Positions 5,673 through 15,849 are shown, numbered from the stretch's first letter. The stretch is 35,234 bases of DNA from Kiritimatiellia bacterium (GCA_007128275.1 SKXR01000134.1:1-35234); one strand, 5' to 3'. The notes: generated from the letters alone by a model not told the origin. A program made the numbers and translations.

Positions 5673-6299
5673 ATGCAATTTGTCGACAATTTCCTCGGTG
5701 AGGTGGCGGAGGTTCTCCTCGCGATTGCCCGCGACGATGTGGAACGGGCGGTGGATGTGTTGGCGGCTACGCGCGATGCGGGCGGCCGCGTCTTTGTGCT
5801 CGGCGTCGGGGGTAGCGCGGCTTCCGGCTCGCATCTCGTAAACGATTTGCGCAAGCTGTGCCGCCTGGAAGCGTATGCTCCAACCGATAACGTCTCCGAA
5901 CTGACCGCCCGCGTGAACGATGAAGGATGGTCGACAGTCTTCGAGGCGTGGCTTCGCGTTAGTCGGATCCGAAAAGGGGATACGCTGCTGGTCTTGTCGG
6001 TAGGGGGCGGTGATGCGGAGCGGAATATCAGTCCGAATCTCGTCACGGCCCTCGATGTGGCCCGTGAAGCCGGTGCGTCGATTGTGGGCATTGTCGGACG
6101 TGACGGTGGGCACACGGCGCGCATGGCCGACGCGTGCGTTATCATTCCCACGGTCAATCCGGAACATATCACTCCCTTGACCGAATCCTTCCATTCCGTG
6201 ATCGGGCATGCCATCGTATCGCATCCGAAGCTGAAAGCCGCCGCCACCAAATGGGAGTCCGCGACCGCCGGGCGGCAGCAATCCCAACAACAGCAATAA
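5673..6299 (+). CDS. SIS-domain sugar-phosphate isomerase (GmhA/LmbN-like)
   Basis: GVGGSAASGSH, TARVNDEGW, GDTLLVLSVGG, SPNLVTAL, GRDGG, ESFHSVIGH. Confidence 0.88.
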   Translation: MQFVDNFLGEVAEVLLAIARDDVERAVDVLAATRDAGGRVFVLGVGGSAASGSHLVNDLRKLCRLEAYAPTDNVSELTARVNDEGWSTVFEAWLRVSRIRKGDTLLVLSVGGGDAERNISPNLVTALDVAREAGASIVGIVGRDGGHTARMADACVIIPTVNPEHITPLTESFHSVIGHAIVSHPKLKAAATKWESATAGRQQSQQQQ

Positions 6300-6302
6300 G
6301 CG

Positions 6303-7037
6303 ATGGCTGAACCAGAATCCATACCGCAGTTGCCGGATCTACGCATCAAGATATTCTCGGACGGCGCCGACTTGGATTCCATTCTGGACGCGTATCAGAA
6401 AGGCGTGGTCAAGGGGTTCACGACCAATCCCACCTTGATGGCCCAGGCGGGGATCACCCATTACTTGACCTTTGCGAGGGAAGTGTTGCGGGTGGTGACG
6501 GATTTGCCGGTATCGTTCGAGGTGTTTGATGACGATTTCGGGGGTATGTATCGACAGGCGCATGTCCTCCATGAACTCGGAAGCAACGTGTATGTGAAGA
6601 TCCCGATTACAAACACGCGTGGCGAGCCGTCGGTACCCCTGATTGAGCGATTGTCCGGGGAAGGCATTAAGCTCAACGTCACGGCCATGATGACGTTGGC
6701 GCAGGTGCAGGCCGTCCACGATGTGTTGCCGGACGATGCGCAGGCGGTGATCTCCGTATTTGCCGGGCGCATTGCCGATTCGGGCCGTGATCCCGTACCC
6801 ATCATGCAGGAGGCCCTGAATATACTGCGCCCAAAACCGGGCGCCGAATTGTTATGGGCCAGTCCTCGTGAGGCATTAAACATTCTGCAGGCGGACGCCA
6901 TCGGATGTCCCATCATCACCGTGACGCCCGACTTGCTGAAGAAAGCCGCGCTTTTCGGAAAAGATCTTGAGGAATTCTCGCTGGAAACCGTGAAGATGTT
7001 CTATAATGACGCCGCAAAGAGCGGGTTCAGGATATGA
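6303..7037 (+). CDS. Transaldolase (short TalC/FSA-fold type; LmbR-like role proposed)
   Basis: IFSDGAD, GFTTNPTLM, VSFEV, VYVKIP (Schiff-base Lys), LNVT, SVFAGRIAD, LWASPRE. Confidence 0.9.
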   Translation: MAEPESIPQLPDLRIKIFSDGADLDSILDAYQKGVVKGFTTNPTLMAQAGITHYLTFAREVLRVVTDLPVSFEVFDDDFGGMYRQAHVLHELGSNVYVKIPITNTRGEPSVPLIERLSGEGIKLNVTAMMTLAQVQAVHDVLPDDAQAVISVFAGRIADSGRDPVPIMQEALNILRPKPGAELLWASPREALNILQADAIGCPIITVTPDLLKKAALFGKDLEEFSLETVKMFYNDAAKSGFRI

Positions 7038-8059
7038 TCATTACACGCACACCTTTCAGAATCACGCTGGGCGGCGGAGGCACGGATTTGCCGTCGTTCT
7101 ATGAGCAGCACGGCGGATATATCTTCTCGATGTGCATTAACAAGTACATGTACATCATGCTCAACCGCCGTTCGGTGGCGGATCGCAAGATCGTCATCCG
7201 GTACAGTCAGGTGGAGACGGTGGACAGTATCGATGAAATCCATCATCCGCTCGCGCGCGAAGCACTGCGTGTTCACGATGTTCGCGAAAACATTGAACTG
7301 ACCAGTGTCGCCGACATGCCCGGGAAATCGGGATTGGGTTCGTCCGGCGCATATTTGGTGGGATTACTGACCGCCATCCGCGCGTACAAGGGGGAATCGG
7401 CTTCGCTGCAGGAGATCGCGGAAGAGGCCTGTCATATCGAGATGGATATCTTGAAAGAGCCGGTGGGTAAACAGGACCAGTACATGGCCGCCTTCGGCGG
7501 ATTTCGAGAATTGGACATCGCGCGGGACGGGACGGTTACCGTGACGGAAGTCCCCGTGGCGGTTCCGGCGATCAAGGAATTGGCCGCCAAGGCGGGCATG
7601 TACTATACGGGGGTGCAACGGTCCGCGACGGCGGTCTTGAAGGCGCAGGACGATGCCGCCCGCGAAACCGGCAGTCCGGATCATGCTCGAGTACTGGAAA
7701 GCCTGCAGCACATCAAGGCAATCGGCTCCCGCATTCGTCGATCATTTGCCGACGGCGATCTGGATGCGTTCGGCCGGTTGATGGACGAGCATTGGCAGTT
7801 CAAGAAACGAATGTCCAAGGGCATCAGTTTGAGTGTGCTCGAGGATTTATACGAAACCGTGAAGCGACAGTATGGCGTCCTGGGCGGCAAGATCATCGGC
7901 GCGGGCGGCGGCGGATTCATTATGCTGTACTGCCCGGAGCATAGGACGGAGCTGGACACCTTTATGGCCGGGCAAGGCATGCCGCGGGTGCCGTATTATC
8001 CCGCCATGCAAGGGGCCACGGTGATCAACAACATGACCGGTACGGACCACATGGAATGA
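7034..8059 (+). CDS. GHMP anomeric sugar-phosphate kinase (HddA/LmbP-like)
   Basis: TPFRITLGGGGTD, PGKSGLGSSG, GKQDQY, GGKIIGAGGGGF; ATGA overlap with the transaldolase. Confidence 0.92.
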   Translation: MIITRTPFRITLGGGGTDLPSFYEQHGGYIFSMCINKYMYIMLNRRSVADRKIVIRYSQVETVDSIDEIHHPLAREALRVHDVRENIELTSVADMPGKSGLGSSGAYLVGLLTAIRAYKGESASLQEIAEEACHIEMDILKEPVGKQDQYMAAFGGFRELDIARDGTVTVTEVPVAVPAIKELAAKAGMYYTGVQRSATAVLKAQDDAARETGSPDHARVLESLQHIKAIGSRIRRSFADGDLDAFGRLMDEHWQFKKRMSKGISLSVLEDLYETVKRQYGVLGGKIIGAGGGGFIMLYCPEHRTELDTFMAGQGMPRVPYYPAMQGATVINNMTGTDHME

Positions 8060-14255: not shown

Positions 14256-14863
14256 AGAAGGCGGTATTTGTGGATCGGGACGGCACGCTCAACAAGATGG
14301 TGTATGACCAGACACACGGGCTCATGGACTCGCCGCGCAGGCCCGAACAGGTCGCGCTGATTCCGGGGGCGGGCCGTTTTCTGAAGGAGGTGCGTTTGCG
14401 GGGGTATCTCGCCGTGGTCGTCTCCAATCAACCCGGGCTGACGAAGGGCACCTTGACCCTCGATGAACTGAACGCCGTACATCGTCAGTTGGCGGAACTC
14501 CTGTTGGGCGAGGGAGGCGCATGGGACGATCTTTATTATGCCGCCTATCATCCCGATGGCGGGCCGGGTGCGTGCCGGGCCTATGAGGCGCAAAAAGAAT
14601 TTCGCAAGCCCGCTCCGGGCATGTTGCTGGATGCGGCGAAGAAACACGATATTGATCTCGCCGCGAGCTGGATGGTCGGCGACGGCATCGTGGATGTTCA
14701 GGCCGGGCGGGCGGCGGGATGTCGGACCGTTCTGGTCACGCAACTCAAGCTCGAGCAGTTGGAACAGTTTCAGAAACTCGAAAATGCCACCCCGGACGCC
14801 GTCGTGGCGGACTTGGCGGAAGCCTTCACGATCATCCAGCGCGGAGAAGTTCCGAGGCATTGA
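14252..14863 (+). CDS. gmhB: HAD-IIIA sugar-bisphosphate phosphatase (GmhB/LmbK-like)
   Basis: AVFVDRDGTLN, VVSNQPG, RKPAPGML, SWMVGDGIVDVQAG; GGAGG RBS, ATGA overlap. Confidence 0.88.
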   Translation: MKKAVFVDRDGTLNKMVYDQTHGLMDSPRRPEQVALIPGAGRFLKEVRLRGYLAVVVSNQPGLTKGTLTLDELNAVHRQLAELLLGEGGAWDDLYYAAYHPDGGPGACRAYEAQKEFRKPAPGMLLDAAKKHDIDLAASWMVGDGIVDVQAGRAAGCRTVLVTQLKLEQLEQFQKLENATPDAVVADLAEAFTIIQRGEVPRH

Positions 14864-14895
14864 CCCGGATGCGCGTTTATGCGATAGGTACAGCC

Positions 14896-15849
14896 ATGTC
14901 GCGAATCTTGTCTATCTGCGTTCCCGTCTTCAATGAGAAGGATAATGTTTCTCACGTAGTGCAGGAAGTCGAACGAGTATTTGCCGATGAACTTTCACGG
15001 TACCAACTCGAAATAGTCTTCACGGACAATGCTTCGACCGACGGCACCTGGGAGATGATCCGGGAACTTGCCAAGACCAAACCGCATATTCGGGGATATC
15101 GATTCTCCCGCAATTTCGGGTATCAGAACTCCATCTTTGCAGGCCTGTCGATGGCCACCGGGGATGCCATCATCGAATTGGACGCCGATCTGGAGGATTC
15201 TCCCCGGGTGATCCCGAAATTCGTCAAGGAATGGGAGGCCGGCTATGACGTCGTTTACGGCGTGCGTTCCAAGCGCCATGAACCGTGGATGATGCGCTCG
15301 TTATTTTCCCTCTTTTACTGGCTGATGAACCGCATTTCCGACATCGAGATCCCCCGGCAAGCCGGGGACTTTCGACTGATCGATCGCAAGGTGGCAAACA
15401 TGTTGACGAGTCTGGGGGAGCGGAATCTGTATCTGCGGGGGTTGGTGTCCTATCTCGGATTCAAACAGAAAGCGGTCCCGTATGAACGGGATCCTCGCGC
15501 CGCGGGCCAAAGTAAATTCAACCTCCTGCGATATGTCATCATGGGCGTGGACGCGCTGACGGCCTTCACGAAGACCCCGTTACGCATGATCGGCCTGCTG
15601 GGGGTGGTCTTGTTTATCCTTTCCATGGCGTTGGCGGCGAATTTCTTCTTTGGCAAGATCTTTCATGGGGTTCCGGTTCAGGGCTTTACCACGCTGGTCG
15701 TCCTCATCCTCTTCCTGCACAGCATGACCTTCATCTTCCTGGGGGTCTTGGGAGAGTACCTCAGTCGTGTGTTCGACGATGCCAAGAACCGTCCGCGCGC
15801 GATTATTGCAGAGTCGACACATGGCGGCGACTTTCCCCGGGCGTTGTGA
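14896..15849 (+). CDS. Polyprenol-phosphate glycosyltransferase, GT2 (GtrB/ArnC/YkcC-like)
   Basis: SICVPVFNE, DNASTDGT, FSRNFGYQ, LDADLEDSP, GYDVVYGVR, GDFRLIDR, two C-terminal TM helices, GVLGEYLSR; ATG at 14896. Confidence 0.9.
   Translation: MSRILSICVPVFNEKDNVSHVVQEVERVFADELSRYQLEIVFTDNASTDGTWEMIRELAKTKPHIRGYRFSRNFGYQNSIFAGLSMATGDAIIELDADLEDSPRVIPKFVKEWEAGYDVVYGVRSKRHEPWMMRSLFSLFYWLMNRISDIEIPRQAGDFRLIDRKVANMLTSLGERNLYLRGLVSYLGFKQKAVPYERDPRAAGQSKFNLLRYVIMGVDALTAFTKTPLRMIGLLGVVLFILSMALAANFFFGKIFHGVPVQGFTTLVVLILFLHSMTFIFLGVLGEYLSRVFDDAKNRPRAIIAESTHGGDFPRAL

Follow-up and report, generated by a model that had tools for sequence, protein, structure and literature searches.

A run of eleven genes on a stretch of DNA of 35,234 nucleotides from a Kiritimatiellia bacterium (GCA_007128275.1, SKXR01000134.1:1-35234; the whole stretch is referred to below as the window) was analysed by means of profile searches and comparisons of gene neighbourhoods. 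The run (positions 5673-15849, all genes on the + strand, co-oriented and mostly overlapping) includes a gene for a short-type transaldolase (TAL), and it is well supported that this TAL is dedicated to a sugar-nucleotide pathway that is heptose-like, is distinct from the heptose routes and feeds glycosylation of the cell envelope. Judging from the protein families encoded, the eleven genes probably form one operon for the synthesis of a nucleotide-activated higher-carbon sugar, most likely an octose, which would be passed to a polyprenyl-phosphate carrier.

Core genes of the module

The proteins of the window were assigned to families with the aid of Pfam and NCBIfam profiles. Five of the eleven would make up the core of the pathway: a SIS-domain sugar-phosphate isomerase (5673-6299, +; PF13580, 43 bits) of a subtype distinct from canonical GmhA, for which conversion of a ketose phosphate into an aldose phosphate is proposed; the TAL (6303-7037, +; TIGR02134, 332.7 bits, cut-off 281.95); a GHMP-family sugar-phosphate anomeric kinase (7034-8059, +; PF00288 and PF08544), the gene of which overlaps that of the TAL by 4 nucleotides (nt) and the proposed role of which is HddA/LmbP-like; a sugar-1-phosphate nucleotidyltransferase with a proposed HddC/LmbO-like role (13536-14255, +; PF00483 and PF12804; ManC-type model, 98 bits); and a HAD-IIIA phosphatase (14252-14863, +; TIGR01656, 109.3 bits, and TIGR01662, 80.7 bits, both above their cut-offs), which would remove the terminal phosphate in a GmhB/LmbK-like role. 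The open reading frame (ORF) of the nucleotidyltransferase is open from 13431, the PF00483 and PF12804 matches begin at residue 41-42 of this long ORF, and the ATG at 13536 is the likely start.

The other genes of the run encode three short-chain dehydrogenases/reductases (SDR1, SDR2 and SDR3), a homologue of UDP-glucose dehydrogenase (UGDH), a Gfo/Idh/MocA oxidoreductase and a family 2 glycosyltransferase (GT2). When calculated with the shifted starts of the nucleotidyltransferase (13536) and of the GT2 (14869), the start codons of which were checked, the junctions in gene order are +3, -4, +15, -4, +118, +133, -4, -8, -4 and about +5 nt. A sequence-only reading of this DNA had listed the same eleven genes and had described the run as largely translationally coupled; all eleven are present on the + strand at the positions given here, every family was recovered by Pfam or NCBIfam, and the junction spacings agree with the description.

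Genomic neighbourhoods of the transaldolase

The arrangement was compared across a sample of 150 other genomes of the phylum (151 when the genome of the window itself is counted), about 20 kb being fetched around each TAL match. This type of TAL occurs in 12 of the 150, and in all 12 loci its gene directly adjoins homologues of the SIS isomerase, the GHMP kinase and the nucleotidyltransferase; a HAD homologue was also found with tblastn in nine of the 12. The SIS subtype of the window (58-69% identity) is present in exactly the 12 TAL-bearing genomes and in 0 of the 138 others, and the next-best SIS matches in the sample are at most 42% identical, giving a bimodal distribution. PF00923 was not found in 93 of the 151 genomes, and TAL is therefore not a core gene in this group.

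Loci from outside the phylum were collected in a scan of genome contigs seeded with P0233, the most actinomycete-like of the GC-rich TAL representatives picked by amino-acid composition, in which at least 592 of 599 matched stretches were confirmed and the best 80 were kept. The loci were picked on TAL similarity alone; the 80 are those closest to the seed, so that distant stand-alone members (those of staphylococci, for example) are not represented. The best 80 of 592 belong to Acidobacteriota, Chloroflexota, Actinomycetota, Alpha-, Beta- and Gammaproteobacteria, Myxococcota, Planctomycetota, Bacteroidota, Cyanobacteria, Elusimicrobia, Latescibacterota, Bipolaricaulota and others. Genera represented in the scan include Granulicella, Terracidiphilus, Reyranella, Bradyrhizobium and Chthoniobacter, in each case through metagenome-assembled genomes. 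Pooled with the 12 phylum loci, the 80 give a set of 92, of which 61 include 6 kb or more of sequence to either side of the TAL gene (well-flanked loci) and span more than 10 phylum-level groups; neighbours were counted up to a distance of 10 kb. A SIS gene accompanies the TAL gene in 60 of the 61 well-flanked loci, a HAD gene in 51, and the GHMP kinase together with the nucleotidyltransferase in 32. An HldE-like bifunctional kinase/nucleotidyltransferase was found in 12/61, a partial GHMP/nucleotidyltransferase set in a further 12/61, and neither in 5/61. The search for this synteny across genomes had been proposed as a check; now that it has been run, the neighbourhood recurs in 12/12 phylum loci and in most of the best 80 of 592 elsewhere, which is more than chance.

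Natural gene fusions join the same partners. HAD-TAL fusions (P0122, P0124, P0137 and P0149) account for four of the ten long representatives scanned, and one of the 150 representatives listed in the TAL search (P0133) is a TAL-SIS fusion. A classical long TAL (226-279 bits) accompanies the module TAL (128-148 bits) in each of five large genomes from other groups that carry the module. The dedicated transaldolase that had been proposed is thus borne out by the 12/12 adjacency, the co-occurrence with the SIS subtype, the 60/61 loci and the additional classical TAL in 5/5 genomes. A FastTree phylogeny of 132 TAL representatives was star-like and uninformative. In three GC-rich representatives (P0241, P0199 and P0202) some segments fail to align with the other family members and have the appearance of frameshifted gene calls.

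Relation to the heptose enzymes

Four of the core proteins have their best-named relatives among the enzymes of the guanosine diphosphate (GDP)-heptose route, and all four score far below the equivalog cut-offs for GmhA, HddA, GmhB and HddC. The SIS isomerase reaches 57.4-61.2 bits with the GmhA models (cut-offs 209-320), the GHMP kinase 126.7 bits with the HddA model (cut-off 600), the HAD phosphatase 111.4 bits with PRK08942 (cut-off 178) and 88.7 bits with a second heptose model (cut-off 149.6), and the nucleotidyltransferase 88.4 bits with the HddC model (cut-off 300).

A canonical gene set for adenosine diphosphate (ADP)-heptose is encoded elsewhere in the genome, spread over four contigs (C154:20206-20661, C6:1717-2676, C164:5891-6307 and C142:311-766). 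The set comprises a GmhA-like protein (189 bits), rfaE domain I (355.6 bits, cut-off 345), rfaE domain II (193.8 bits, cut-off 181.5) and a second GmhB-like protein, the rfaE kinase and adenylyltransferase domains being separate genes in this genome. Sedoheptulose 7-phosphate is a product of transketolase, and a heptose route needs no TAL. We know of no characterised GDP- or ADP-heptose cluster that contains one, and no paper linking TAL to GDP-heptose clusters was found in the open-access literature searched.

Tailoring genes

The UGDH-family dehydrogenase (10142-11452, +; all three UGDH Pfam domains; TIGR03026, 268 bits) carries Thr in place of the catalytic Cys (motif GFAGG-T-LARD), as had been read from the sequence; Cys occupies this site in the UGDH at 4160-5608 and in the solved UGDH 4a7p. 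Cys is absent from 32 module-linked UGDH homologues, 20 of which have Thr and 12 Asn at the position, and is kept in four distant ones. The gene is followed by that of the Gfo/Idh/MocA oxidoreductase (11586-12605, +; PF01408, PF22725 and PF02894), the best solved relative of which is 1,5-anhydro-D-fructose reductase (2glx). Of the 61 well-flanked loci, 38 have a Gfo gene near the TAL gene and 23 have one that is paired with a UGDH homologue, so the pair to which attention had been drawn does recur with the module.

In UGDH the Cys residue is required for the four-electron oxidation to the uronic acid. LmbL and CcbZ act as a pair in 6,8-dehydration, LmbL in the role of a two-electron dehydrogenase, and the reaction needs a C8 side chain. 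By analogy, the loss of Cys and the pairing with Gfo fit a two-electron secondary-alcohol dehydrogenase that may play an LmbL-like role with an LmbZ/CcbZ-like partner.

SDR1 (8075-9043, +; PF01370, 157 bits) and SDR2 (9040-10023, +; PF01370, 140 bits) are extended, epimerase-like SDRs that are 37% identical to each other; the GalE-like 3ehe is the best solved relative of both (258 and 261 bits, respectively), and Ser...YxxxK is present in SDR1. SDR3 (12602-13543, +; PF16363, 182.8 bits) is an Rmd-like keto-reductase, its best solved relative being GDP-6-deoxy-D-lyxo-4-hexulose reductase (2pk3, 195.3 bits). When the alignment was read by eye, no dehydratase-type motif (Thr-Asp/Ser-Glu, which we take to be the SDR dehydratase signature) was seen in the three SDRs. 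An Rmd-type keto-reductase makes sense if the UGDH-like/Gfo pair yields a keto-deoxy intermediate, no SDR with the dehydratase motif being at hand.

Activation variants

The HldE-like type of locus is exemplified by L045 (8829-19353), in which the gene order is SIS, HAD, TAL, two SDRs, HldE-like, Gfo, UGDH homologue (Asn), two SDRs and Nudix hydrolase; its HldE-like protein consists of a cytidylyltransferase-like and a PfkB domain in reverse domain order. The same variant was found in L026, L029, L047, L048, L050, L052, L056, L065, L092 and L095. The module therefore exists in two activation variants, one with the GHMP kinase and nucleotidyltransferase and one with the HldE-like protein, mirroring the GDP- and ADP-heptose routes. 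The HldE-like variant is suggestive of an ADP-activated form of the same sugar. Among the Actinomycetota the module is present in loci L024, L040, L060-L062, L064 and L072.

Glycan locus and host

The last gene of the run encodes a GT2, a putative polyprenyl-phosphate glycosyltransferase of GtrB/ArnC/PgfS type (14869-15849, +; PF00535, 103.7 bits). Its ORF is open from 14719, and either 14869 or 14860 is the likely start. The models of PgfS and ArnC match the whole length of the protein but below their cut-offs (229.9 bits against 500 and 153.3 bits against 529, respectively), and two C-terminal hydrophobic segments were found in a simple hydropathy scan. Homologues lie within 10 kb of the TAL gene in 15 of the 92 loci, and in some Solirubrobacterales loci the GT2 gene sits among the module genes. 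The remainder of the window is a glycan locus with GT2 and GT4 transferases, a LamG-domain protein, an FkbM methyltransferase, a second Gfo gene, a Cys-retaining UGDH-family gene and four polytopic membrane proteins. Two of the latter are candidates for GT-C enzymes, that is, periplasmic transferases using a lipid-linked sugar: the protein encoded at 21318-23456 (+), with six hydrophobic segments and weak PMT/PMT_2 matches (PF13231, 27.1 bits; PF02366, 25 bits), homologues of which (37-39% identity) adjoin the module in loci L010 and L011, and the large protein encoded at 27197-29695 (+), with eight hydrophobic segments and a match to YfhO (PF09586, 18.7 bits) below the cut-off of 28.5, a homologue of which (51% identity) adjoins the module in locus L005. 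The placing of a polyprenol-phosphate GT2 in a surface-glycosylation locus, as claimed from the sequence, agrees with this ArnC/PgfS-type protein and with the GT-C-like membrane proteins nearby.

The other two polytopic proteins (1582-3210, +, and 23383-24753, +; 9 and 12 hydrophobic segments, respectively) gave no Pfam or NCBIfam match and are candidates for a flippase, a polymerase or a GT-C; homologues (27-42% identity) of the 456-residue member of this pair adjoin the module in L006-L009. The second UGDH-family gene (24850-26067, +) keeps the Cys codon and its product resembles UDP-N-acetylmannosamine dehydrogenase (167.9 bits, below the cut-off); together with the second Gfo/Idh/MocA gene (18416-19468, -) it probably belongs to another sugar pathway of the locus. 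Two long ORFs (19563-20573 and 20200-21396, +) overlap by about 370 nt, and the FkbM match covers only the C-terminal third of the second; the gene calls here are provisional. At the end of the window (32502-35222, -) lies the gene for a 906-residue protein in which a GNAT domain at the N-terminus precedes CoA-binding, succinyl-CoA-ligase-like and ATP-grasp domains of the ADP-forming acyl-CoA synthetase type; the Pat-type protein acetyltransferases are similar, but their domain order is presumably the opposite.

The window is one contig (C66) of a 2.8-Mb genome in 296 contigs that is 92.65% complete. The nearest named relatives of its TAL come from metagenome-assembled genomes of Kiritimatiellia, Lentisphaerota and Verrucomicrobia. 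Three DNA runs, all of them soda-lake or alkali-sediment metagenomes of one study, each contain half or more of the words sampled from the stretch, and the source sample may be among them; no RNA runs containing the stretch were listed. The GC content is even over the window (0.52-0.63), and no claim of recent transfer is therefore made. A promoter and terminator scan returned fewer sites than shuffled sequence did, and its result was not used.

Proposed pathway

By analogy with LmbR, LmbN, LmbP, LmbK and LmbO, a nucleoside diphosphate (NDP)-octose is the best reading of the product, and we consider it reasonably probable. The TAL would move a dihydroxyacetone unit (C3) from fructose 6-phosphate or sedoheptulose 7-phosphate to a pentose 5-phosphate, giving an octulose 8-phosphate. 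This compound would be converted by the SIS isomerase into the aldose 8-phosphate, phosphorylated at C1 by the GHMP kinase, relieved of its 8-phosphate by the HAD phosphatase and turned into NDP-octose by the nucleotidyltransferase, GDP being assumed from the analogy with HddC and LmbO. The two GalE-like SDRs could then epimerise the sugar, the Cys-less UGDH homologue and the Gfo/Idh/MocA enzyme could oxidise and dehydrate its side chain (6,8-dehydration), and the Rmd-like SDR, no aminotransferase being present, could reduce the keto group to give an NDP-8-deoxy-octose. The ArnC/PgfS-type GT2 would load the sugar onto polyprenyl phosphate, from which the GT-C-like proteins of the locus might transfer it outside the cytoplasm.

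The predicted end product is a neutral, probably 8-deoxygenated octose, which would serve to decorate envelope glycans or proteins. The gene families, the operon arrangement, the conserved and dedicated tie of TAL, SIS and HAD to kinase and nucleotidyltransferase genes in many phyla and the missing catalytic Cys are seen directly in the data; the substrates, the carbon number, the order of tailoring, the nucleotide and the final acceptor are what we infer. The interpretation offered by the sequence-only reading has thus held as regards the families, the dedicated TAL, the UGDH/Gfo pair and the putative polyprenyl-phosphate GT2, the separate heptose set likewise speaking for it, and its C8 product and kinship with the Lmb enzymes keep the standing of an interpretation.

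Alternative explanations

Several observations weigh against an octose pathway with a dedicated TAL. The alignment with the TAL of T. acidophilum shows that Asp, Glu, Lys and Phe, to which we assign the catalytic roles known for the family, are retained, so that all canonical TAL residues are kept, and a TAL with erythrose 4-phosphate as acceptor makes sedoheptulose 7-phosphate, the normal heptose precursor. The genome of the window (92.65% complete) has no PF00923 gene besides this one, and five of the 12 further genomes of the phylum sample that carry the module likewise have the module TAL as their sole TAL-family gene; in genomes without another TAL it could double as a housekeeping enzyme. 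TIGR02134 is a plain "transaldolase" equivalog in the NCBI curation, and two TAL relatives (P0159 and P0224) carry an N-terminal region resembling GIY-YIG/NUMOD3 homing endonucleases, which may mean that they are phage-encoded or that gene calls were mis-joined; the subfamily therefore also holds ordinary pentose-phosphate enzymes. HAD was not detected in 10 of the 61 well-flanked loci, nor was the full activation set in 17. No Streptomyces locus is among the best 80 of the 592 stretches of the TAL scan, the likeness to the Lmb proteins is at family level, and LmbR may belong to a TAL subfamily other than that of the module TAL. An octose-containing envelope glycan was not found in the open-access literature searched.

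Some of these points favour a pathway of GmhA/HddA/GmhB/HddC type to GDP-heptose (or to ADP-heptose in the HldE-like variant), in which the TAL would supply or buffer sedoheptulose 7-phosphate and the tailoring enzymes would give a modified or deoxy heptose for surface glycans. GmhA, HddA, GmhB and HddC are, after all, the best-named relatives of the SIS isomerase, the GHMP kinase, the HAD phosphatase and the nucleotidyltransferase, many bacteria possess separate ADP- and GDP-heptose routes, and with no other TAL-family gene in the genome, and none in 93 of the 151 phylum genomes, a TAL might be brought along as a feeder. We nevertheless regard a heptose product as unlikely, though by no means negligible: the four proteins lie far below the equivalog cut-offs, the SIS isomerase belongs to an orthologous group of its own, every member of which in the phylum sample is found together with the TAL, and a much better GmhA is encoded elsewhere in the genome. 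A supply role would moreover be redundant in the five large genomes that already have a classical TAL, transketolase provides sedoheptulose 7-phosphate without a TAL, and the characterised GDP-heptose clusters are not known to carry one. A different higher-carbon or otherwise modified sugar nucleotide is less probable still and would call for another acceptor, such as a hexose 6-phosphate (leading to a nonulose) or an aldose phosphate of deoxy, amino or branched type. Transaldolases do accept several aldose phosphates, the tailoring sets differ widely among the loci (SDRs, Gfo, Thr- and Asn-type UGDH homologues, Nudix), which suggests a family of products, and the likeness to the Lmb enzymes is at the family level; yet the sole characterised pathway with TAL, SIS, kinase, HAD and nucleotidyltransferase uses ribose 5-phosphate and gives an octose, and positive evidence for another acceptor is lacking. 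That the TAL is a housekeeping pentose-phosphate enzyme lying by chance in an ordinary nucleotide-sugar cluster is very improbable, even though the genome has no other PF00923 match and NCBIfam calls the family simply "transaldolase". This reading is strongly disfavoured by the conserved neighbourhood, the loci having been picked on TAL similarity alone: the same SIS subtype is adjacent in 12/12 phylum genomes and nearby in 60/61 well-flanked loci, the junctions in the window are of 3 and 4 nt, HAD-TAL and TAL-SIS fusions exist, and a classical TAL coexists with the module in 5/5 large genomes.

Significance

A broader proposal can be put forward tentatively, our own judgement leaning slightly to the side of doubt: straight-chain octoses, often 8-deoxygenated by way of a Cys-less UGDH homologue and Gfo, may be widespread and unrecognised envelope sugars made by a TAL-primed pathway, with a GDP-type variant (GHMP kinase and nucleotidyltransferase) and an ADP-type variant (HldE-like) in hundreds of species of more than 10 phylum-level groups, and the lincosamide sugar pathway of Streptomyces may have been recruited from this primary envelope pathway. 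It is plausible that such a non-antibiotic use is the ancestral context of the lincosamide sugar module, as the sequence-only reading had suggested.

If the product is an octose, surface glycans would hold a class of monosaccharide that is missed by standard compositional analyses and by genome annotation, the genes concerned now being annotated as transaldolase, phosphoheptose isomerase, UDP-glucose dehydrogenase and the like. The pathway would then be common in soil, sediment and aquatic bacteria and would show where the unusual sugar of the lincosamides came from in evolution. Glyco-engineering would gain many natural LmbR-, LmbL- and LmbZ-like enzymes, and two subfamilies of Cys-less UGDH homologues, one with Thr and one with Asn, would be defined by a non-canonical role. 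Should the product be a heptose instead, TAL, SIS and HAD would still form a strictly coupled and conserved module, of which no description was found in the open-access literature searched and the TAL and SIS proteins of which are probably mis-annotated. Nor was a transaldolase-primed sugar-nucleotide pathway outside the lincosamides found described in that literature, although subscription papers or supplements could hold one.

Comparison with known systems

At the export end, the module and its surroundings resemble the three-component lipid-linked systems GtrA/GtrB/GtrC, ArnC/ArnT and PgfS-PgfM1/M2 in the end-to-end alignment of the GT2, in its two C-terminal hydrophobic segments and in the presence of PMT- and YfhO-like polytopic proteins. 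They differ from them in that the scores lie below the equivalog cut-offs and the GT-C matches are weak (27 and 18.7 bits); the donor sugar, if such a system is at work, would be new. With the GDP-heptose (GmhA, HddA, GmhB, HddC) and ADP-heptose (GmhA, HldE, GmhB, HldD) routes the module shares the families and the order of isomerase, kinase, phosphatase and nucleotidyltransferase, and its two activation variants (GHMP kinase with NTP_transferase; PfkB with a cytidylyltransferase-like domain) mirror the two heptose routes. Unlike those routes, it always includes a dedicated TAL, its SIS isomerase forms an orthologous group of its own, and its proteins score below the equivalog cut-offs.

The closest parallel in enzyme content is the GDP-octose branch of lincomycin and celesticetin biosynthesis. 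One report (PMC4351081) presents the transaldolase LmbR, the octulose 8-phosphate isomerase LmbN, the C8 phosphatase LmbK and the C8 guanylyltransferase LmbO as characterised and LmbP as a predicted C8 kinase, and another (PMC12945683) has LmbM, LmbL, CcbZ and CcbS converting GDP-octose into GDP-lincosamide. No characterised route other than the lincosamide branch is known to us in which nucleotide-sugar synthesis is primed by a transaldolase (PMC4351081, PMC12945683). The window brings together these five core enzyme families, the likeness being at family level, and the tailoring genes (8075-12605) also correspond in their GalE-like SDR epimerases and in the pairing of a UGDH-family with a Gfo/Idh/MocA protein; no Lmb sugar enzyme was among the PDB relatives found for the module proteins. 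In contrast to the lincosamide clusters, the window is without a carrier-protein fusion, a nonribosomal peptide synthetase and a thiol-handling gene. No pyridoxal-phosphate aminotransferase equivalent to LmbS was found among the Pfam matches of the 29 window ORFs scanned, an Rmd-like reductase being present instead, and the end product is therefore not lincosamine. The context also differs: the module is accompanied by a putative polyprenyl-phosphate GT2 and GT-C-like membrane proteins, not by the genes of an antibiotic cluster, its host inhabits soda lakes and belongs to the Verrucomicrobiota/Kiritimatiellia neighbourhood (by the names of the nearest TAL relatives), and the module has an HldE-like activation variant. 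What is new is thus a known enzyme logic in a primary-metabolic and phylogenetically broad context, together with a second variant of activation.

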